Origin: an uncultured Eubacteriales bacterium
GTDB lineage: Bacteria > Actinomycetota > Coriobacteriia > Anaerosomatales > JAAXUF01
Assembly (NCBI GenBank): GCA_964521195.1
Contig: CAZFRE010000001.1
Coordinates: forward strand, 575-64,574
DNA: 64,000 nucleotides
Direction: 5' to 3'
The notes under the pieces were generated by a model, which was given only the letters and a program-made list of their open reading frames with translations, had not been told where the DNA came from and searched no databases. Of this stretch, positions 1-49,329 are shown one piece after another. Position 1 is the stretch's first letter. Each line of letters begins with the position of its first letter. Both the position numbers and the translations under genes were made by a program.

Positions 1-318
1 CCTGTCGTCGCGTACTACCTGCCGACCACGATCCCGTCGTTCCCGTTCCCGCAATACGCCGACAACGCCGACCTGCGGGGCGGCAAGGTGAAGCTCGGCC
101 AGGACCTCGATCGCATCGCCGGTGACTCCCGCCGGGTCTGGATCATCCTGAGCTTCCAGGACATCGAATCCATCGCGGGTGACGCGTACAACACGCTCAA
201 GTGGTTCGAGCGCCATGGCTACAAGACGGTGCAGCACGTCGAGTTCAACAACGTCGAGCTGTACGAACTCGAGGCACCTGATGACCGGCTACCGCTCATC
301 AGGGGGTACGCGCCGTGA
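1..318 (+). CDS. 3' end of a gene truncated by the window edge; possibly the extracytoplasmic tail of a membrane glycosyltransferase
   Basis: Frame 1 is open from base 1 to TGA 316-318, and the stop overlaps the GTG of the GT2 gene (GTGA). Product guess comes from context only. Confidence 0.5.
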   Translation, partial: PVVAYYLPTTIPSFPFPQYADNADLRGGKVKLGQDLDRIAGDSRRVWIILSFQDIESIAGDAYNTLKWFERHGYKTVQHVEFNNVELYELEAPDDRLPLIRGYAP

Positions 319-1892
319 TCTACATCCCTCGTGAGCGCCGCAAGGAGTACCTGCGCACGTGCCGGATCATGTCGGTGATCTCGTTACTCGCTGCGCTCGT
401 GTACCTCAAGTGGCTCTACCTCGATGCGCGCCCCGACAACGCCGTGCTGTTCGTCCTCCTGGTCGCCGCCGAGACGTTCAACGTCGTGCAGGCGATCGGC
501 TTCTGGTACACGATCTCGATCCAGAAGTGGAACGAACCGGTCGCGATGGACTTCTCGGCGAGTGACGAGACGGTCGACATCTTCATAACCGTGTGCGGCG
601 AGCCGCGTGATGTCGTGGAGCGCACCGTGCGCGGCGTCATGGCCGTTCGGCATCCGCGCAAGAAGGTGTGGGTGCTCGACGACGGCCGGAGCCACGAGAT
701 CGAGGTGCTCGCGTACGTCAACGGCGCCGGCTACCTGACGCGCGACTCGCGTCGCGGCGCCAAGGCCGGCAACATCAACGACGCGCTCGCGCGAACGAGC
801 GGCAAGTACGTCGTCATCTTCGATGCAGACCACGTGCCCCGCCCCGACTTCCTCGAGAAGTCGCTTGGAGCGTTCGTCGACCGGCATGTCGCGTTCGTGC
901 AGACGCCGCAGTCCTACGCCAACCGCATCGACAACCGGGTCGCATGGGGGGCGCACGAGCAACAGCGGCTGTTCTACGGGCCGATCATGCGCGGGCGGCT
1001 CTCGGTCAACGCGGCGTTCTCGTGCGGCACCAACATGATCTTCAACCGAGCCGCGCTCGCAGACGTGGGAGGCATGCCGGAAGACTCCATCACGGAGGAC
1101 CTGCGGGTCTCACTGCTGCTGCTTGAGAAGGGCTACCGCTCCGAGTACGTGCCCGTGGTGCTCGCGCATGGCCTCGGTCCTCTCGATGTGAGCGGCTTCT
1201 TCAGCCAGCAGCTTCGCTGGGCGCGTGGCGGCCTCGAGATCCTCTTCAAGCGCAAGCCGTTCTTCAAGGGCATGCGCCCGGCCACCGGCATCCAGTTCGG
1301 ACTGAGCTTCTGGTACTGGTTCACCGGCCTGGCCTATGCGGTGTATCTCATCCTGCCCGTCGCGTTCCTCGTCTTCGGGCAACGCCCCGTGCAGGCCCCC
1401 AACGACTATCCGCTCTACTTCGTGCCCTACATCGTGGTGACGCTCGCCACCATGGCGTACGCGACCGATTTCGACATCACATTCCGCGGCATCTGGTTCA
1501 CGCTCTCGGCGTTCCCGGTGCACATCGCCGCGCTCTTCTCGGCGCTGTTTGGCGGGGATGCGAAGTTCGTCGTCACGTCCAAGAGTGGCACGAGCCGCTC
1601 GCTTCGTCCCGTCGCGGTGCACATCACGGCGATCGCGGTGCTTGCGTTCTCGATCGTGTTCGGTCTGTGGCGCTACGGCTTCAACCCGTCGGTCATGAAC
1701 AACGTCGCCTTCGCGCTCGGGCACATACTGTTGCTGCAGGGCTTCGTGCGCTACGCGCTTCACCCGCTGGTCCCCGAGGGCGAGGTGGGCGGCCGGGGAA
1801 CCGCCGCGGGTCTGGCCGCCGAGAAGCCCGCCAACGTGAGTGAGCACCAGCCGAAGATCACCGTCGCCGAGTGGGGAGGGCAGGAGGAGTGA
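315..1892 (+). CDS. Cellulose synthase-like processive GT2 glycosyltransferase, no PilZ domain
   Basis: Motifs DDG, AKAGN, DAD, QTPQ, FSCGT, TED and QQLRW. Two N-terminal and about five C-terminal TM segments. Confidence 0.9.
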   Translation: MIYIPRERRKEYLRTCRIMSVISLLAALVYLKWLYLDARPDNAVLFVLLVAAETFNVVQAIGFWYTISIQKWNEPVAMDFSASDETVDIFITVCGEPRDVVERTVRGVMAVRHPRKKVWVLDDGRSHEIEVLAYVNGAGYLTRDSRRGAKAGNINDALARTSGKYVVIFDADHVPRPDFLEKSLGAFVDRHVAFVQTPQSYANRIDNRVAWGAHEQQRLFYGPIMRGRLSVNAAFSCGTNMIFNRAALADVGGMPEDSITEDLRVSLLLLEKGYRSEYVPVVLAHGLGPLDVSGFFSQQLRWARGGLEILFKRKPFFKGMRPATGIQFGLSFWYWFTGLAYAVYLILPVAFLVFGQRPVQAPNDYPLYFVPYIVVTLATMAYATDFDITFRGIWFTLSAFPVHIAALFSALFGGDAKFVVTSKSGTSRSLRPVAVHITAIAVLAFSIVFGLWRYGFNPSVMNNVAFALGHILLLQGFVRYALHPLVPEGEVGGRGTAAGLAAEKPANVSEHQPKITVAEWGGQEE

Positions 1893-3088
1893 GCGAGCGC
1901 ACGGCACGGCGGCTCAATCTCACCGGTATCGCCGGGCTCCTCGGCGCGGTGCTTGTGGCTGTCACGCTCGGCGGGTGCGCGACCGGACGAGTCGCGGAGA
2001 ACACGCCGGCACGGCCCGGCAGCGGCATCGACGAGACGTCGTATTCGGTCGAGCCGAAGATGTGCTGGCGCGTCCAGCCACCGGCATACGGCGCCTACAT
2101 CGGCATCTATCGGCCGCCGATGCCGTTCGTCATCGCCGAGTACGACGCGTACCTCGCGACGACATCACCCAAGCCGCCGTCGATCATCATGTGGTACCAG
2201 CCGTGGGCCGAGTCGGGTCCTCACGAGATCGATCAGGCGGCGCTCGCATCGGTCTACCAGCGAGGCGCGGTGCCGATGATCACGTGGGAACCGTGGGACC
2301 CGGGTACGAACGCCAATGCGGTGCAGAACCCCGGAACGAACCAGAACTGGCGGCTGAAGAACATCCTCGACGGCCGCTATGACGGCTACATCCGCCGTTG
2401 GGCAAGCAAGATCAAGGCGGTCAAGGGCCCGGTCATGCTCAGGCCCATGCACGAGATGAACGGCGAGTGGTACCCGTGGGCGGGGACCGTCAACGACAAC
2501 ACCCCCGCGGACTACATCGCCGCCTGGCGCCACATCCACGACATGTTCGAGGCCGAGGGCGCCACGAACGTCACGTGGGTCTGGAGCATCAACGGCGAGA
2601 GCGTTCCCGACACTCGCGAGAACCGGTACGACGTGTACTACCCGGGCGACGAGTACGTCGACTGGGTCGGCCTTTCCGGCTTCAACTGGGGAACCACCGG
2701 CAACAACTCTCAGTGGGAGACGTTTGACGAGATATACACCGCCCCACTGCGTTACGCGCGCACGCTGAACAAGCCGATCGTCATCGCCGAGTTCGCCAGC
2801 GTGGAACAGGGGGGAGACAAAGCCGAGTGGATCTACGACGCCTACAAGCGGATCCGCACGGAGCACCCCGAGGTCGACGCCGTCGTGTACTTCGATTCGT
2901 TCGAAAGCGGCCCGGACGGTACGCAGGACTGGCGGATTCACACGTCGGCAGAGGCATCGCACGCCTACGCCGACTCCCTCGACGACCCGTACTACCTGCC
3001 CGCTCCACCGGCGACCATGCGCAACTGGATGGACGGCCTGTCCAGCCGCAACTGGATGTATCTTCGCTCGCTGTTGCCGGTGTACTAG
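1889..3088 (+). CDS. GH26 glycoside hydrolase, predicted lipoprotein
   Basis: LGGC lipobox; WEPW, RPMHEMNG (acid/base Glu) and IAEFAS (nucleophile Glu). GTG start overlaps the GT2 stop and follows GGAGGA. Confidence 0.88.
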   Translation: MSERTARRLNLTGIAGLLGAVLVAVTLGGCATGRVAENTPARPGSGIDETSYSVEPKMCWRVQPPAYGAYIGIYRPPMPFVIAEYDAYLATTSPKPPSIIMWYQPWAESGPHEIDQAALASVYQRGAVPMITWEPWDPGTNANAVQNPGTNQNWRLKNILDGRYDGYIRRWASKIKAVKGPVMLRPMHEMNGEWYPWAGTVNDNTPADYIAAWRHIHDMFEAEGATNVTWVWSINGESVPDTRENRYDVYYPGDEYVDWVGLSGFNWGTTGNNSQWETFDEIYTAPLRYARTLNKPIVIAEFASVEQGGDKAEWIYDAYKRIRTEHPEVDAVVYFDSFESGPDGTQDWRIHTSAEASHAYADSLDDPYYLPAPPATMRNWMDGLSSRNWMYLRSLLPVY

Positions 3089-3279
3089 CCGGGTAGCGGC
3101 CTCGGCTTCCGCCTGGCAAGGGTCCACGTCACGCCGGCCGTCCGCGGCTCGCGAAAATCTGTGTCGAAACTCACATTCATCGCCCCCAAGGGGTTCAGTT
3201 GAGCGCGCCATCGACCGATACGTTCTGTGACAGATGAACAGTTTTGTGCGGGACCGATAGGGCTTTCTGAAGCCCGATC

Positions 3280-3355
3280 CCGACAAAGGCGAACCCGTCG
3301 CGAGGCGGGGGCGCAAAGCCAAGGGTCTCCCCGAGACAGCCTAGCTACCGAAGGT
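3280..3355 (+). ncRNA. c-di-GMP-I (GEMM) riboswitch
   Basis: GGCGAACC, then P2 CCCGTC-GCGA-GGCGGG (GNRA loop), GCGCAAAGCC, P3 GGTCTC/GAGACAGC and CTACCGAAG. The G20/A47/C92 equivalents are at 3288/3315/3348. Confidence 0.85.
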
Positions 3356-3362
3356 GAAGGTA

Positions 3363-4697
3363 ATGAAGAAGCTCGTCGCAGTCCTCGTTCTCGTTCTCGC
3401 TCTGGCCGCAGCGGCCGCAACCCCCGCATTCGCATCCGTCCGAGTCACGGCGCGCGCCAAGACCCAGTTCGCCCAGGGGACTCCTTCCAAGGTCGTCTTC
3501 ACCGCCAAGCTCACCAAGCGCGGCCACGTCAAGCGCGGCATCGTCCGCTTCAGGATCTACCGCAACGGCGAGTTCGTCCGCTCGATCCGGGCCAAGCGGT
3601 CCGGCAAGTCCTACAAGGCCTCGTGGACCCTCACCGACGACGCCCGAACGCTGGCCAGCACCAGCTCCTACCGCTACAAGGTCCGCGCGACCACCAAGCG
3701 CTCCGGCCGCGGTAAGGCATCGGGTCGCGTCACGATTCCGACCCCGACGCCCATCGTGACCCCCTCGGATCCTACGACCGACACGACCGTTCCCACGGTC
3801 ACCCCGGTCCCCGTACCGGTTCCTGCTCCTACCACCACCCCGACGGCGACTCCGGGCCGCTGGGTCGGCTACTACATCCCGGGCTGCCCGTCGCATCTCG
3901 AGCCGCTCGATGAGCTGCAGTCCAAGATCGGCGCGAAGGCCGCGGTGCTCAACTTCTTCATCGCCGACTCCGAGAGTTTCCCGGCCGCCCGCGTCGAGAA
4001 CGCGCAGAGCAACGGCTCCATCCCGATGGTCACCCTCGAGTTCCACAAGACCGTCGACCTGCGTGGCGTCGAGTCGATCACCAACGGGGAGTGCGACACC
4101 TACATCCGCCGCTTCGCGCAGGCTGCCAAGGCCAACGGCGGCGAGATCTGGCTGCGCCCGTTCCACGAGATGAACGGCGAGTGGTCCGCGTGGTGTGGCG
4201 TCGTCGGCAACAACTCCGCTGCCAAGACGGTCGCCGCCTGGAAGCACATCCACGATGTGTTCCAGCAGGAGGGCGCCACCAACGTGAAGTTCGTCTGGAA
4301 CGTCAACGGCTTGAGCTGCCCCAACACCTCGGCGAACGCGATCGAGAAGTACTGGCCCGGCGACGCGTACGTCGACTACACGTCGATCGACGGCTACAAC
4401 TTCGGCAACCACGCGTCGTGGTCGAGCTGGGCGTCCCCCGAGTCGATCTTCGGCGACGCGTACCGCCGCATCAACAAGCTCAGCGGCAAGCCGATGTTCA
4501 TCGCCGAGATGGCGTGCACCTCCAACGGCGGCGACAAGGCTGCCTGGATGGCCAACTTCTTCGCCAACGTGAAGACGCAGTTCCCGAAGCTCGTCGGAGT
4601 GGTCTGGTTCAATGCCGACAAGGAAGAGGACTGGCGCGTCGAGGAGACCCCGGCCACACTGGCCGTCATGCAGAATCTCGCCGTGACCGGCTACTAG
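3363..4697 (+). CDS. Secreted GH26 hydrolase with Lys/Arg-rich N-terminal domain and Pro/Thr linker
   Basis: Signal peptide ending AFA, PT-rich linker, RPFHEMNG and FIAEMAC. Confidence 0.88.
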   Translation: MKKLVAVLVLVLALAAAAATPAFASVRVTARAKTQFAQGTPSKVVFTAKLTKRGHVKRGIVRFRIYRNGEFVRSIRAKRSGKSYKASWTLTDDARTLASTSSYRYKVRATTKRSGRGKASGRVTIPTPTPIVTPSDPTTDTTVPTVTPVPVPVPAPTTTPTATPGRWVGYYIPGCPSHLEPLDELQSKIGAKAAVLNFFIADSESFPAARVENAQSNGSIPMVTLEFHKTVDLRGVESITNGECDTYIRRFAQAAKANGGEIWLRPFHEMNGEWSAWCGVVGNNSAAKTVAAWKHIHDVFQQEGATNVKFVWNVNGLSCPNTSANAIEKYWPGDAYVDYTSIDGYNFGNHASWSSWASPESIFGDAYRRINKLSGKPMFIAEMACTSNGGDKAAWMANFFANVKTQFPKLVGVVWFNADKEEDWRVEETPATLAVMQNLAVTGY

Positions 4698-4805: not shown

Positions 4806-4865
4806 TACGATTGGTACCCGTGAGCGTGCGGGAGCGCGAGCCGATCACATGATGCGAGGTTGAAG

Positions 4866-6083
4866 ATGGTCAGGCGCCAGATACGCCGAGCAGTCCTTGC
4901 GATGATGCTGGCGGTCGCGATAGTCATCGGTCAGGGGTGCGCCGCCTCGCCCTCGGCCACCACAGGGCCCGCCACCCCCTCGGCCTCGGCTCCGGCGACC
5001 GTGGAGGGATCCTCGGCCGCAGTCGCAACCGCGGCCCCGCCGTCCGCGACCACCGGTACGGCATCCGACCCGGGCTACGCACCCGTCGACGACGAACTGC
5101 TCACCATCCAGATCGGTCAGGACTATGCCGTTCTGCCGCCGGCAAAAGGCGTCTACGCGGGGATCTTCGAACCTCCGGCGCCGTTCGGTTACGAGCGACT
5201 CGAGGCCTACGGCGAGAAGTTCGACAAGCCCGCGGCCATCGTGCTGTGGTACCAGGCATGGGAGCCTGACGAGTGGATCGGCGACTTCAAGGAAGAGAAC
5301 GTTCGCGAGATCCTCAAGCGCGGCGCGATTCCGATGATCACGTGGGAGCCGTGGGTCGCAGGCGCGGGCGTGAAGCAGCCCAAGTACCGCTTGAGCACGA
5401 TCATCAACGGCGACTGGGACGAGTACATCCGGTCGTGGGCGAGGGCGGCGAAGTCCATCGACGGACCGATCATGATCCGTCCGTTCCACGAGATGAACGG
5501 CGAGTGGTATCCGTGGGGCGGCACTGTCAACGGGAACAAGCCCTCAGACGTGAAGAAAGCCTGGATTCACGTGCACGACATCTTCGAGGAAGAGGGCGCC
5601 ACGAACGTCACGTGGGTGTGGAGCATCAACTGGGAGAGCTACCCCAACACGTATGCGAACCGGTTCGACGCCTACTACCCCGGTGACGAGTACGTCGACT
5701 GGACATCGATCAGCGGGTTCAACTGGGGCAAGACCCGCACCCGGCCGCAGGGCCGCTCGTTCACCAACATCTACACCAAGCCGCTCGCGTACCTCAAGAC
5801 CGTGGGCAAGCCCGTGGTCATCTCGGAGATCGGCTGCAACAGCAACGTGGACAAGGCCGCGTGGATCAAGGACGCCTACACCCGCGTGCTCCTCAAGTAC
5901 CCGCACGTGAAGGGCATCTGCTACTACGACAAGCGCGAGCCCAACAACGTGAAGGGCACGCAGGACTGGCAGATCTCGAGTTCGAAGTCGTCCGAGAGGG
6001 CGTATCGCTCGGCGATGTCGTCCCGCATGTACATCGGTGGCTCACCGACCTCGCTGCTCGGCACGGTGACCGCCACGCCGTAG
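4866..6083 (+). CDS. GH26 glycoside hydrolase, predicted lipoprotein
   Basis: GQGC lipobox, Ala/Thr/Pro linker, WEPW, RPFHEMNG and ISEIGC; clearly paralogous to 1889-3088. Confidence 0.88.
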   Translation: MVRRQIRRAVLAMMLAVAIVIGQGCAASPSATTGPATPSASAPATVEGSSAAVATAAPPSATTGTASDPGYAPVDDELLTIQIGQDYAVLPPAKGVYAGIFEPPAPFGYERLEAYGEKFDKPAAIVLWYQAWEPDEWIGDFKEENVREILKRGAIPMITWEPWVAGAGVKQPKYRLSTIINGDWDEYIRSWARAAKSIDGPIMIRPFHEMNGEWYPWGGTVNGNKPSDVKKAWIHVHDIFEEEGATNVTWVWSINWESYPNTYANRFDAYYPGDEYVDWTSISGFNWGKTRTRPQGRSFTNIYTKPLAYLKTVGKPVVISEIGCNSNVDKAAWIKDAYTRVLLKYPHVKGICYYDKREPNNVKGTQDWQISSSKSSERAYRSAMSSRMYIGGSPTSLLGTVTATP

Positions 6084-9969: not shown

Positions 9970-10718
9970 CGGGCCGCCCCCTCGGACGGCGCGACGGTGT
10001 CGCGCCACGCGCCGTACGCCATGCCGCCGAGCAGCGCGACGATGAGTCCCGACTGCATCGGGAGCAGGGGCACGAGCACGGCCGCCGCCAGTGCGGTCAC
10101 CAACGCGACGCCGACCGCGGTCCTGTTCGCGAGCGATGGCGCGAGCATCGCGAGGAAGACGAGCGGCACCGCGAAGTCGAGTCCCCATGCTGTGGGGATG
10201 ACGGGGCCGAGCAAAGCGCCGAGCAGCGTGGTGACCTGCCATGTGCCGGCGAGCGCCGCCCAGGCGCCGACATAGTACGGCACGACATCGATGTCGTCTC
10301 GGAAGCGACCTCGTGTCATGACCGAGGCGTAGTTCTGGTCGACGAGCATGTAGCCGAGGAACGGCCGCTGCCACTCCGGGGCGTCGGAGAGCAGTGGCGC
10401 GATCGACGTCGAGTAGATGAACATCCGCGAGTTCACGATCAGTGCGGTGAAGAGCGCGACCCACAACGGGGCACCGTCGCCGAACAGCGTGGTGGCGACG
10501 ATCTGGGAAGCGCCCGCGAAGACTATGACCGACATGCCGATCGACTCGGCCACGCCTTGCCCGATCTGGATGACCGCCGTTCCGGCGACCAGGCCGAAGG
10601 GGACGACCCCCACGAGGATGGGGAGCATGTCCTTCACGCCGGCGTTGAAGCTGTGGCGGGAGCGGGATCGCCTGTCGGCAGGTGCCGCCGAGTCCCGGGG
10701 GCTGTGGTTGTGCGGGAT
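9966..10718 (-). CDS. azlC: AzlC-family permease; start uncertain (ATC 10718 or ATG 10628)
   Basis: PILVGVVPFG, SVIVFAGASQ, VNSRMFIYS and LDFAVPLVFLA. Confidence 0.82.
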   Translation of the reverse strand: MPHNHSPRDSAAPADRRSRSRHSFNAGVKDMLPILVGVVPFGLVAGTAVIQIGQGVAESIGMSVIVFAGASQIVATTLFGDGAPLWVALFTALIVNSRMFIYSTSIAPLLSDAPEWQRPFLGYMLVDQNYASVMTRGRFRDDIDVVPYYVGAWAALAGTWQVTTLLGALLGPVIPTAWGLDFAVPLVFLAMLAPSLANRTAVGVALVTALAAAVLVPLLPMQSGLIVALLGGMAYGAWRDTVAPSEGAAR

Positions 10719-21347: not shown

Positions 21348-21953
21348 GTGTCCGCTGAACTCATCTACCGCCTGAGCGCGCTCGCCATCGCCGTCACCTA
21401 CATGACGATGCGCTCGGTGTTCGAGCGCAGGCTCGGCCGCGGTTCGAAGTTCGAGACGCTCAAGCACGCCGACAAGGACAGCCGCCTGGAGTTGATGGTT
21501 GTGAGCTGGGGTCAGATGACGCAGTGGCTCTACATGCTCACGCCATGGATCGACTTCGCCGCGCTCGGCTTCCCCGCGTGGCTGCGCTGGTCCGGTGCGG
21601 TCGTCGCGGCTTTAGGGCTCGGGTTGTTCATCTGGACGCATGCGCAACTCGCCGGCAACTGGTCGCCGTTCGTGGAGCGCGCGCAAGCGGGTACGCTCAT
21701 CACCGGTGGCCCGTACCGCTGGGTGCGCCACCCCATGTACTCGTCGTTCTTCCTCTACAACGCCGGCCTGCTGCTGCTTGTCTCCAACTGGCTCGCCGGG
21801 ATTCCGGCGCTCGTGACCTTCGCGTGGATGTACCACCACCGGGTCGGCCGAGAGGAGCGCCTCATGCTCGAGCAGTTCGGCGACGAGTACGCTTCCTACG
21901 CCGAGACGACCGGGCGTGTGATCCCGGGAGTGGGTCGCCGGGCACTCGGCTGA
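21348..21953 (+). CDS. Isoprenylcysteine carboxyl methyltransferase (ICMT/Ste14)-family membrane protein
   Basis: LITGGPYRWVRHPMY, EERLMLEQFGDEY..Y and TGRVIP. Confidence 0.88.
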   Translation: MSAELIYRLSALAIAVTYMTMRSVFERRLGRGSKFETLKHADKDSRLELMVVSWGQMTQWLYMLTPWIDFAALGFPAWLRWSGAVVAALGLGLFIWTHAQLAGNWSPFVERAQAGTLITGGPYRWVRHPMYSSFFLYNAGLLLLVSNWLAGIPALVTFAWMYHHRVGREERLMLEQFGDEYASYAETTGRVIPGVGRRALG

Positions 21954-22036
21954 GTGTGCCGGGCCGTCTCGGCGTGCCTTCGCGGTGGGCTATCCTGTTG
22001 CGAGTCTGCCGCCATCCGGTCCCTAGGAGTCCGCCG

Positions 22037-23206
22037 TTGTTCATCCTCGAAGAGCCCTACGTCTCCGACCTGCTCGCCGGCACCGTGGCCGAGCTCGGCC
22101 TACCGGTGCTCGACACGCCCATCGCTCGGCGCCGGCTCGTCGGCGCATATGCGACCACGCTCTCCCCGGCTGATGACTTCGTGACCGCTGCCTCGGCACC
22201 GGGCGCGCGAGTCTACTCGAACTCCGAGAACGCCATCGGCTGGATCGCCCAGCGCCTCTCGTGCACCGATCTGCCGCGGCGCATCGAGCTGTTCAAGGAC
22301 AAGGTCGCCTTCCGAGAGCTGCTGGCCGACCTCTATCCGGACTACCGGTTCGTGGGGTTGTCTCTCGCAGAGCTGCGTGGCTTCGACGTCGCCCGCGTCC
22401 GCGCGCCGTTCATCGTGAAGCCGGCCGTGGGCTTCTTCAGCCTTGGCGTGCACGTGGTCGACTCGGCGGCGGCGTGGCCCGAGGTGGTCGCGACGATCGA
22501 GCGCGAGGCCGAGCAGTTCGCGGCTATGTACCCGGACCAGGTCCTCGGGCTCGACCGCTTCATCGTCGAGGAGGCGATTGGTGGCGAGGAGTTCGCGGTC
22601 GATGCGTACTTCGACGCCGACGGCGAGCCGGTGCTCGTCGACGTGTACACGCACCTGTTCGCCTCGGCGGACGACGTGAGCGACCGCGTCTACTACACCG
22701 ATGCCGAGACGATTCGCCGGCTCGGTCCGCCGGCGATGACGTTCCTCGCCGAGGTGGGGCGCCGCGCGCGTGTCACGGACTTCCCGGTCCACGCGGAGCT
22801 GCGCATCGACAGCGAGGGCAACGTCGCACCGATCGAGATCAACCCGATGCGCTTCGGCGGGTGGTGCGCCACCGACGTCGCGCACTTCGCGTACGGCATC
22901 AACCCGTACCGCGCATACCTGCTCGGCGAGCGTCCCGACTGGGACCGCATCGCGCAGGAGACCGCCGGGCGCACGACCGCGCTCATCGTGTCGGATCTGC
23001 CGAGCAGCGTGGATCTCGCGGCCATCGAATCCGTCGACTACGACGGTTTCGCGGCGCGCTTCAGCCGCGTTCTCGAGCTGCGGCCGACCGACTTCAACCG
23101 CTACCCGGTGTTCGCGTTCACGTTCGTCGAGGTGCCGAGCGACGATCTTGGCGAGCTGCACGCGGTGCTAGGGGCGGACCTGCGCGAACACCTGCGGATG
23201 CGGTAG
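22037..23206 (+). CDS. ATP-grasp domain protein
   Basis: FKDK..FR, FIVKPAVGFFSLGV, EE.I.GEEFAVD, HAELR and IEINPMRFGG; AGGAG RBS before TTG. Confidence 0.85.
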   Translation: MFILEEPYVSDLLAGTVAELGLPVLDTPIARRRLVGAYATTLSPADDFVTAASAPGARVYSNSENAIGWIAQRLSCTDLPRRIELFKDKVAFRELLADLYPDYRFVGLSLAELRGFDVARVRAPFIVKPAVGFFSLGVHVVDSAAAWPEVVATIEREAEQFAAMYPDQVLGLDRFIVEEAIGGEEFAVDAYFDADGEPVLVDVYTHLFASADDVSDRVYYTDAETIRRLGPPAMTFLAEVGRRARVTDFPVHAELRIDSEGNVAPIEINPMRFGGWCATDVAHFAYGINPYRAYLLGERPDWDRIAQETAGRTTALIVSDLPSSVDLAAIESVDYDGFAARFSRVLELRPTDFNRYPVFAFTFVEVPSDDLGELHAVLGADLREHLRMR

Positions 23207-48000: not shown

Positions 48001-49329
48001 GTGGTATGTTCGCCTCTGCGGGCACCAAGCCCGGCGGGGCGGTTCCGGAAGGCGGCGGCTCGGCACTTGGACGACACGACTCGCAAAGCGGCTCCCGAGC
48101 TCAAACGCATACGCACGCGCAACCCGGCTACGGCGGCGTTTCGGATCGTGGCGGTGTACGCCGTGGTGGCGGTGGCGTGGATTCTGTACTCGGACCACGT
48201 TCTGAGCTTGCTGTTCACCGATTCCGGCATGCTCACGCGCGCGGCGAGCGTGAAGGGCGCACTGTTCGTCCTCGTCACATCGGTGCTGCTCTTCCTGCTC
48301 ATCCGCAGCTACCTCGCACGGCTCGAGCGCGCGAGCGAGCAGCTGCGTGAGAGCGAGCGCCGTTTCAGGCACATGGTCGAGGTCTCGCCGGTTCCCATCG
48401 CCGTACACGCCTCTGACGGCGGTGTGACGCTTGTGAACGCTGAGTTCACCTCGGTGCTCGGCTACGAACGCCAGGACATCCACACCGTGTCGCACTGGTG
48501 GGAGCTCGCGTATCCCGATCCTGATTACCGGCGCAGCGTGATGGAGGCGTGGCAGTGCGAGAGCGAGCGGAGCCAGCGTGAGGACGACATGTTCGTTCCC
48601 GTGCCCGCCCGCGTGAGGTCCAAGGACGGCGCCGAGCGGTTCATGCTCATCGGATCGGCCGTCCTCGATGCCGGGACTTCCGAGCGGATCGTGGTCTTCC
48701 ACGACCTGACCGAGCACCAGCGAGCCGAGCAGTCCATCCTCGCCGCAAACGTGCGACTGGAAGGCCTGCTCAGGGAGGTCATCTCCCTCATCGGCAAGAT
48801 CGTCGAGACGCGCGATCCGTACACGAGGGGCCATGAGGAGGGTGTCGCGAGGATCGCCCGGCTCATCGCCGAGGAGCTCGACCTTCCCGCGGAAGATGTA
48901 GAGGGCATCGAGGTGGCGAGCCTCGTGCACGACGTCGGCAAGCTGGGCGTGCCTGCCGAGATCCTCTCGAAGCCGGGCACGCTCCTGGCTGTCGAGTACG
49001 AGATCATCAAGACCCACCCGACGGTCGGCTACGAGATCCTCCAGGGAGTCGACTTCGGCTGGCCCGTCGCCGAGATGGTCCGCATGCATCACGAACGGAT
49101 GGACGGCTCGGGCTACCCGCAGGGCCTGAGCGGCGACGACATCCCCATGGCGGCGCGCGTGCTCATGGTTGCCGACGTGGTCGAGGCGATGGCGGCGCAC
49201 CGCCCCTACCGGGCAGCGCTGGGGCACGTGGCGGCGATCAACGAGATTCTCTCGCATCCCGAGAAGTTCGACCCGGATGTCGCGCAGGCGTGCGTGCGGT
49301 TGTACGAGGCCGGGCGGCTGGGGCTGTAG
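48001..49329 (+). CDS. Membrane PAS + HD-GYP c-di-GMP phosphodiesterase
   Basis: Two TM, PAS, RDPYTRGH, HDVGK, HHERMDGSGYP and ADVVEAM. Start is uncertain. Confidence 0.9.
   Translation: MVCSPLRAPSPAGRFRKAAARHLDDTTRKAAPELKRIRTRNPATAAFRIVAVYAVVAVAWILYSDHVLSLLFTDSGMLTRAASVKGALFVLVTSVLLFLLIRSYLARLERASEQLRESERRFRHMVEVSPVPIAVHASDGGVTLVNAEFTSVLGYERQDIHTVSHWWELAYPDPDYRRSVMEAWQCESERSQREDDMFVPVPARVRSKDGAERFMLIGSAVLDAGTSERIVVFHDLTEHQRAEQSILAANVRLEGLLREVISLIGKIVETRDPYTRGHEEGVARIARLIAEELDLPAEDVEGIEVASLVHDVGKLGVPAEILSKPGTLLAVEYEIIKTHPTVGYEILQGVDFGWPVAEMVRMHHERMDGSGYPQGLSGDDIPMAARVLMVADVVEAMAAHRPYRAALGHVAAINEILSHPEKFDPDVAQACVRLYEAGRLGL

Follow-up and report, generated by a model that had tools for sequence, protein, structure and literature searches.

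Locus and aptamer

We analysed a stretch of bacterial DNA of 64 kb (hereafter, the window), in which a putative riboswitch of class I for cyclic di-GMP (c-di-GMP), also known as GEMM-I, lies immediately upstream of a gene for a protein of glycoside hydrolase family 26 (GH26). The locus begins with a gene for a cellulose-synthase-like family 2 glycosyltransferase (GT2) without a PilZ domain (315..1892, + strand; Pfam Glyco_trans_2_3 and Cellulose_synt), which scored 260 bits against the CelA model TIGR03030, below the cutoff of that family. Three GH26-family genes follow 3' of it. GH26a (1871..3088, +), recognised by Pfam GH26, by its N-terminal sequence and by synteny in relatives, shares a 22-nucleotide (nt) overlap with the GT2 gene, which suggests translational coupling. 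GH26b, the second of the three (3363..4697, +; 444 amino acids (aa); assigned by its translation and Pfam GH26), is separated from GH26a by a spacer of 274 nt that houses the riboswitch. The third, GH26c (4860..6083, +; Pfam GH26), is 45% identical to GH26a, and no aptamer was found upstream of it either with Rfam or with our own covariance model. Both GH26a and GH26c have a Cys residue after a hydrophobic N-terminal segment, that is, a lipoprotein-like N-terminus; GH26b has a cleavable Sec signal instead. A preliminary description of this DNA had placed the aptamer against the ribosome-binding site of the second GH26 gene in a polysaccharide locus, and our analysis bears this out.

A scan of the whole window with the complete Rfam set of 4227 families, at gathering thresholds (GA), gave a sole match, to RF03167 (c-di-GMP-I-GGC, clan CL00126) at 3279-3353 (+). 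The score was 69.4 bits against a GA of 59 (E = 2.3e-14), the full model (1-80) was covered, and a rerun on the local region agreed. A second family of CL00126 was also above its own GA at the same site and was suppressed by the clan filter; we infer that this was RF01051, for which the GA is 35 bits. Our own covariance model scored the aptamer at 99.9 bits. The GEMM-I element had been described at 3280-3365, and these coordinates proved right to one base; the covariance-model search, which had been proposed as a check, was positive. For that search the description had proposed RF01051; the best-scoring model was RF03167, and the pocket (G3288, A3315 and C3348) was canonical.

The aptamer, delimited to 3279..3354 (+) by the Rfam match, our own model and covariation, has the following anatomy (all on the + strand). 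In helix P1, residues C3279, C3280, C3281 and G3282 pair with G3354, G3353, G3350 and C3349, respectively, and A3351 and A3352 are bulged. P1a is composed of an outer stem of two base pairs (bp; G3289-C3314 and C3290-G3313), internal loops of three residues each (GAA 3291-3293 and GGC 3310-3312) and an inner stem (3294-3299 with 3304-3309) closed by a GCGA tetraloop (3300-3303). An AAA linker (3315-3317) leads to P1b (3317-3329 with 3333-3346), which has a bulged A3321, a C3320·A3343 mismatch and an A3338-G3339 bulge, and A3347 and C3348 lie between P1b and the 3' strand of P1. G3288, unpaired and directly 5' of P1a, is the equivalent of G20, and C3348, directly 5' of the 3' strand of P1, is the equivalent of C92; model alignment places both where the preliminary description had them. 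A3315 corresponds to A47 and is canonical as well. C3312 of the P1a internal loop and the bulged G3339 of P1b are the equivalents of the interhelical C44-G83 pair and were invariant in the 14 closest relatives.

In the Vc2 aptamer, the ligand is contacted by G20, A47 and C92, and the interhelical C-G pair is universally conserved (PMC4744006, PMC5888326). In the published description of GEMM (PMC1950547), P1a comprises stems of 2 bp and 6 bp around a 3-nt internal loop and is capped by GNRA, and an AAA linker joins it to a second hairpin; the RNA of the window fits this architecture in every part (P1a stems, GNRA cap, linker and P1b). Judged by its sequence, the element at 3279-3354 is a canonical (G20/A47/C92) class-I c-di-GMP aptamer of the subtype with a GYGA tetraloop and a short P1b, and c-di-GMP would be its ligand. 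A coding explanation, by the open reading frame (ORF) 3227-3715 (+) or by antisense ORFs over the element, was also considered and rejected, as the conservation mirrors the RNA. The ORFs overlapping the element in relatives vary from 126 to 267 aa and are out of frame with GH26b.

Conservation and covariation in relatives

Relatives were collected by a scan of GTDB representative genomes guided by GH26b homologs, which gave 78 loci; these loci were searched with a regular expression and then with a covariance model built from 14 sequences. A metagenome scan, with a pattern in which position 47 was left unspecified, gave 80 more loci. The same aptamer was found at 18 places in the GH26b-homolog loci, and, the window not counted, 17 loci have it immediately 5' of a GH26b ortholog.

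In the resulting alignment of 110 sequences, 93.6% of cells held standard pairs, in comparison to 28-54% when the 3' partners were slid by 1-3 columns. Compensatory changes on both sides were present at 19 of the 24 pairs, column shuffles never matched the observed pairing (0/500), and all four helices, including the four pairs of P1, alternated between CG, UA, AU and GC. All four helices are supported by covariation. The type of tetraloop went together with the type of P1b: a GAAA tetraloop was paired with a long P1b bearing a UCUAAG...UAUGA motif that resembles the 11-nt receptor (44 of 49 sequences), and a GYGA tetraloop, in 43 of 55 cases, with a short P1b formed by a continuous GUCUC/GAGAC helix; the window has GCGA and a short P1b. 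This pattern agrees with the 2007 description of GEMM (PMC1950547).

The gene order GT2–GH26a–[riboswitch]–GH26b was syntenic in eight loci (L001, L003, L004, L006, L008, L010, L019 and L056), and other relatives had genes of the same locus in divergent orientation. The closest relatives are metagenome-assembled genomes (MAGs) of uncultured Coriobacteriia, a few of them labelled Actinomycetes or mislabelled, and the identity of GH26b to the proteins of the relatives is merely 37-55%. On these grounds, the host is best placed among uncultured Coriobacteriia-like Actinomycetota and not among the classical actinomycetes. The aptamers from metagenomes are followed by genes for secreted proteins of other kinds, namely GHL15 hydrolases, a subtilase and a protein of the FG-GAP/cadherin type, which is the usual spectrum of GEMM genes.

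Some of the relatives carried more than one copy of the element. Two identical copies (100%) were present on opposite strands of a single MAG contig (L001:5917-5992 (+) and 10498-10573 (-)), each with the promoter motif described below and each in front of a gene for an Ig-domain/GH26 protein, suggesting that the cassette was duplicated recently as a whole. In front of GH26 paralogs we also noticed the same scaffold carrying A at position 20 (L014:3875-3955 (+) and L056:11686-11765 (+)). L014 carries a G20 copy (2421-2498) in addition to its A20 copy, and the metagenome locus L086 has A20 and G20 aptamers in tandem (3097-3189 and 3264-3356). A20 shifts GEMM-I towards cyclic GMP-AMP (cGAMP), and these sister copies may read a second dinucleotide.

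Assignment to the c-di-GMP-I-GGC family

At model position 37, which corresponds to A47, the consensus of RF03167 is a conserved G, and the window has A3315 there. We take the name 'GGC' to stand for positions 20/47/92, a reading that the RF03167 consensus also supports; the variant was reportedly defined by Weinberg et al. 2017 (PNAS). Among the 110 aligned relatives, A47 was present in all, 91 had G20/C92 and about 10 had A at position 20; there was no true G47 sequence among the 110 hits, with position 47 left free in the search pattern. When Rfam was run on 11 of the relative loci, equally canonical A47 sequences were assigned to either RF03167 or RF01051, and 11 clan overlaps were suppressed. 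In the comparison of the two models on the window and on L001, L009, L014, L027, L086, L090, L119, L127 and L146, RF03167 outscored RF01051 on many sequences despite their A47. Since A47 is shared by the window and all 110 relatives, which are split between the two families, the GGC label is, on this evidence, artefactual and results from competition within the clan, where a small and sharp model meets a broad one. The RNA of the window was rejected as a GGC variant (RF03167) by the defining residue, A3315 in place of G, and as a c-AMP-GMP riboswitch (GEMM-Ib) by G3288 in place of A at position 20. In general, automated annotations of a 'variant ligand specificity' need a check of the pocket residues, as many RNAs labelled RF03167 lack the defining G.

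Expression platform

The 3' end of the aptamer runs straight into AAGGTGAAGG (3351-3360) and the ATG at 3363-3365, as had been noted before and as we read from the sequence. A Shine-Dalgarno sequence (SD), AAGGUGA, is located at 3351..3357 (+), with its core AGGUGA at 3352-3357, 5 nt before the start codon. The distance from the end of the aptamer to ATG 3363 on the same strand is 9 nt, and G3353 and G3354 are at once SD bases and members of the outer P1 pairs. All GH26-associated relatives preserve the spacing ...CCGAAGGUGA-N5-6-start, and it is this distance that is conserved and not the start codon, which can be ATG, GTG or TTG.

A scan of 2900-3600 revealed no terminator-like structure (+) between the aptamer and the ORF, and a mechanism by transcription termination was dropped on this account. 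When the region 3228-3395 was folded, P0 (a hairpin 5' of the aptamer, see below), P1a and P1b were stable; P1 was weak and missing from the minimum free energy (MFE) structure, and the SD had no strong alternative partner. In the unconstrained ensemble, the SD bases paired with the coding region 3376-3384 with a probability of 0.1-0.4. No conserved anti-SD was seen in the relatives, whose leaders and P0 loops vary in sequence from locus to locus, and the 5' strand of P1 was the only conserved partner of the SD guanines. The CUUUC of the P0 loop in the window, which could act as an anti-SD against GAAGG, was rejected as it is not conserved in relatives. The lack of a terminator and of a conserved anti-SD makes a translational switch the best reading, and we infer that control would be exerted at the level of translation.

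Leader and promoter

Upstream of the aptamer we found a candidate promoter of the sigma-28/FliA/WhiG2 type, TCAG-N15-ACCGATAC, at 3195..3221 (+), which ends 58 nt upstream of the aptamer. It consists of a -35 element TCAG (3195-3198), a 15-nt spacer and a -10 element ACCGATAC (3214-3221) with an exact CCGATA core, and the predicted transcription start site is at ~3227-3229. It was the sole intergenic match to T[AC]A[AG]-N15-17-CCGATA in the window. In 16 riboswitch-GH26 units, the motif T(A/C)A(A/G)-N15-17-CCGATA lies 5' of the aptamer at a distance of 36-80 nt. The 656 kb of related loci (both strands) held no other instance of it, not even at those GH26 paralogs that have no riboswitch; the -10 core alone has a background rate of ~5% per 160 nt. 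A variant, CGATAA, is found in L051 and L052, both loci of Thermoleophilia. The consensus of WhiG2 is given as a -35 of T(A/C)AA, N16 and a -10 of GCCGATAA (PMC12871210, PMC8325347), and the promoter of the window, with its 15-nt spacer, matches this flagellar/WhiG2 consensus, for which a spacer of about 15-16 nt was allowed. In Actinomycetota, sequestration of WhiG by RsiG requires bound c-di-GMP, and Thermoleophilia and Rubrobacteria have RsiG proteins with a single motif. Among the 43 ORFs of the window that were scanned, there was neither a sigma factor nor a flagellar gene.

The 5' leader (3227..3259, +), delimited by comparison of the upstream regions, includes GTGACAGATGAACA (3227-3240). 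This sequence, right after the putative -10 element, is near-exact in L001 (both copies), L013 and L016; within it is an ATG, which opens a short ORF that is not conserved. A second CCGATA hexamer is located at 3254-3259 (+), just 5' of P0; it has no matching -35 element, was not seen in relatives and is probably due to chance. P0 itself is a hairpin, GGGCUU-UCUG-AAGCCC (3260..3275, +), which was obtained in the MFE fold and ends 3 nt before P1, outside the Rfam model. A hairpin of 4-8 bp that ends 1-3 nt before P1 was present in nearly all of the 18 GH26-associated relatives, with differing stem sequences, and the individual z-scores of the P0 hairpins were weak.

The GH26b protein and the remaining genes of the window

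GH26b starts with a Sec signal peptide (…TPAFA|SV), which is followed by an Ig-like domain of the FlgD_ig type (as identified in homologs) and a Pro/Thr linker; residues 165-437 form the GH26 catalytic domain. The protein scored 36.3 bits against Pfam PF02156 (cutoff 20.2). The catalytic domain matched the GH26 domain of Clostridium thermocellum endoglucanase H (CelH), which we take to be the lichenase Lic26A, with an E-value of 3e-54, in comparison to ~1e-8 for mannanases. The catalytic glutamates, E269 (in an HEMNG motif) and E382, were invariant in 37 homologs. GH26b would thus be a Sec-secreted GH26 beta-glucanase, closest to the lichenase-like branch, with beta-glucan as its predicted substrate.

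The remaining window consists of unrelated housekeeping genes, with the exception of a gene for a PAS and HD-GYP (Pfam HD_5) protein at 48001-49329 (+), likely a c-di-GMP phosphodiesterase. It was the sole gene of c-di-GMP turnover that the domain scan found in the window, and its presence means that such genes exist in the genome. A GGEEF motif at 21524-23206 was rejected as a sign of a diguanylate cyclase, as it sits in an ATP-grasp protein.

Discussion

The riboswitch described here is an ordinary member of a well-known class in an under-studied lineage, and its platform, with the SD within P1, is minimal. We consider it probable that a canonical aptamer acts here, through the overlap of P1 with the SD, as a translational OFF switch on GH26b; for the direction taken alone, we lean towards OFF at high c-di-GMP. 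In the mechanism that we propose, a monocistronic GH26b mRNA would have a 5' untranslated region (5' UTR) of ~135 nt and would probably start at the sigma-28/WhiG-type promoter. Bound c-di-GMP would pair with C3348, stack on A3315 and contact G3288, and its binding would lock P1, that is, C3279/C3280 with G3354/G3353 and C3281/G3282 with G3350/C3349. The compact folded aptamer, ending 9 nt from the AUG and holding two SD guanines in pairs, would hinder loading of the 30S subunit. Translation of GH26b would fall at high c-di-GMP, and at low c-di-GMP P1 would open and leave the SD free. As the cell departs from the matrix-producing state of high c-di-GMP, the enzyme would then trim or disperse beta-glucan that the neighbouring PilZ-less GT2 synthase had produced.

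Several points weigh against this explanation. Merely two of the six bases of the SD core are within P1, and the occlusion could be partial; the top Rfam model is nominally that of a variant family, RF03167. The alignment of 110 sequences was fitted to our own model and partly selected by pattern, which somewhat inflates the pairing statistics. RNAalifold, applied to the 14 closest sequences, returned the inner P1a stem and an alternative pairing, and not the full fold, because these sequences vary too little; on the 110-sequence alignment it recovered P1a and part of P1b. Finally, Vc1, a member of class I, is an ON switch (PMC4744006). Vc2 is reported to be an OFF switch (bioRxiv 10.1101/617340), and with both polarities known in the class, the same aptamer with the same ligand could work in the opposite direction if the SD were masked in the free state by the leader, P0 or the early coding region. 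In that case c-di-GMP would free the SD, and the glucanase would be produced together with the glucan, like the BcsZ-type glucanases beside cellulose synthases. The pairing of the SD with the start of the coding region in the unconstrained ensemble and the proximity of GH26b to the synthase gene speak for such an ON switch. The relatives, however, showed no conserved partner for the SD guanines other than the 5' strand of P1, their leaders and P0 loops being variable, and GH26a, with its overlap with the GT2 gene, is the more obvious candidate for a glucanase coupled to the synthase, making the ON direction unlikely in our judgement.

The identity of the ligand and the activity of the element can be weighed in the same manner. 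A true c-di-GMP-I-GGC riboswitch, or another variant with altered specificity, would respond to, e.g., 3',3'-cGAMP or an unknown dinucleotide. This is what the top Rfam model would imply, and the A20 scaffolds upstream of GH26 paralogs point the same way; the window, however, has A3315 at the position of the conserved G of the GGC consensus and G3288, not A, at position 20, A47 is present in all 110 relatives though the search left this base free, and Rfam uses RF03167 and RF01051 interchangeably for equally canonical relatives, so that we hold a variant ligand to be very unlikely. It seems more improbable still that the element does not work as a switch, being instead a relic in decay or a part of the 5' UTR with a constitutive role in structure or stability. 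The short and weak P1 would fit this reading, but the residues of the pocket and of the tertiary contact are all strictly kept, the distance to the start codon is fixed, and compensatory changes have accumulated across many MAGs at a GH26b identity of 37-55%.

The riboswitch would provide a concrete c-di-GMP effector, together with its target, for uncultured Coriobacteriia-like Actinomycetota, and would tie the messenger to turnover of a beta-glucan matrix whose synthase lacks the usual PilZ receptor of c-di-GMP. The most interesting lead, in our opinion, is the strict coupling of the riboswitch to a WhiG-type promoter, which suggests that c-di-GMP could be read twice, once by a sigma/anti-sigma pair and once by RNA; this would extend the RsiG-WhiG story. 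If the genome has a WhiG/RsiG pair, GH26b would be gated twice by c-di-GMP, which is coherent if the riboswitch is OFF. As a tentative and rather doubtful proposal, the WhiG/sigma-28-type promoter and the translational riboswitch may form a two-tier c-di-GMP gate, an AND-type dispersal switch in Coriobacteriia and Thermoleophilia. Were both tiers true, the secreted beta-glucanase would be made only at low c-di-GMP, transcriptionally and translationally.

Comparison with known systems

The RNA of the window resembles Vc2, the prototype of RF01051 from Vibrio cholerae tfoY, in its three-helix fold, in G20/A47/C92 and the C44-G83 pair, in the AAA linker and the GNRA-capped P1a, and in its location in a 5' UTR; Vc2, too, is reportedly an OFF switch, the direction favoured here. 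It differs from Vc2 in its GCGA loop and short continuous GUCUC/GAGAC P1b, where Vc2 has GAAA and an 11-nt receptor, as well as in its platform, which is the bare overlap of P1 and SD, and in the additional P0 hairpin at the 5' side. The host, an uncultured Coriobacteriia-like actinobacterium, and the regulated gene, predicted to encode a GH26 glucanase, are different too. The RF03167 variant has the same scaffold with a short P1b and likewise ends in ...CCGAAG on the 3' side, whereas its defining G at the A47 position is A3315 in the RNA of the window. With c-AMP-GMP riboswitches (GEMM-Ib) it shares the fold and the clan, but has G3288 where these have A at position 20.

As regards the promoter, the likeness is to the WhiG/RsiG system: the promoter of the window fits the WhiG2/FliA consensus, and both devices would answer to c-di-GMP. 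WhiG/RsiG, in contrast, is a sigma/anti-sigma switch at the level of protein, for which a riboswitch partner is not described in PMC12871210 and PMC8325347. A link of a class-I riboswitch to sigma-28 has a precedent in Cd1 of Clostridioides difficile, an OFF switch upstream of the flgB operon that is tied to the sigma-28 (SigD) regulon (PMC6200980, PMC6366702). Cd1, located 5' of the SigD-encoding operon, works through transcription termination, whereas in the window a sigma-28-type promoter apparently drives the riboswitch mRNA itself, and the control would be translational.

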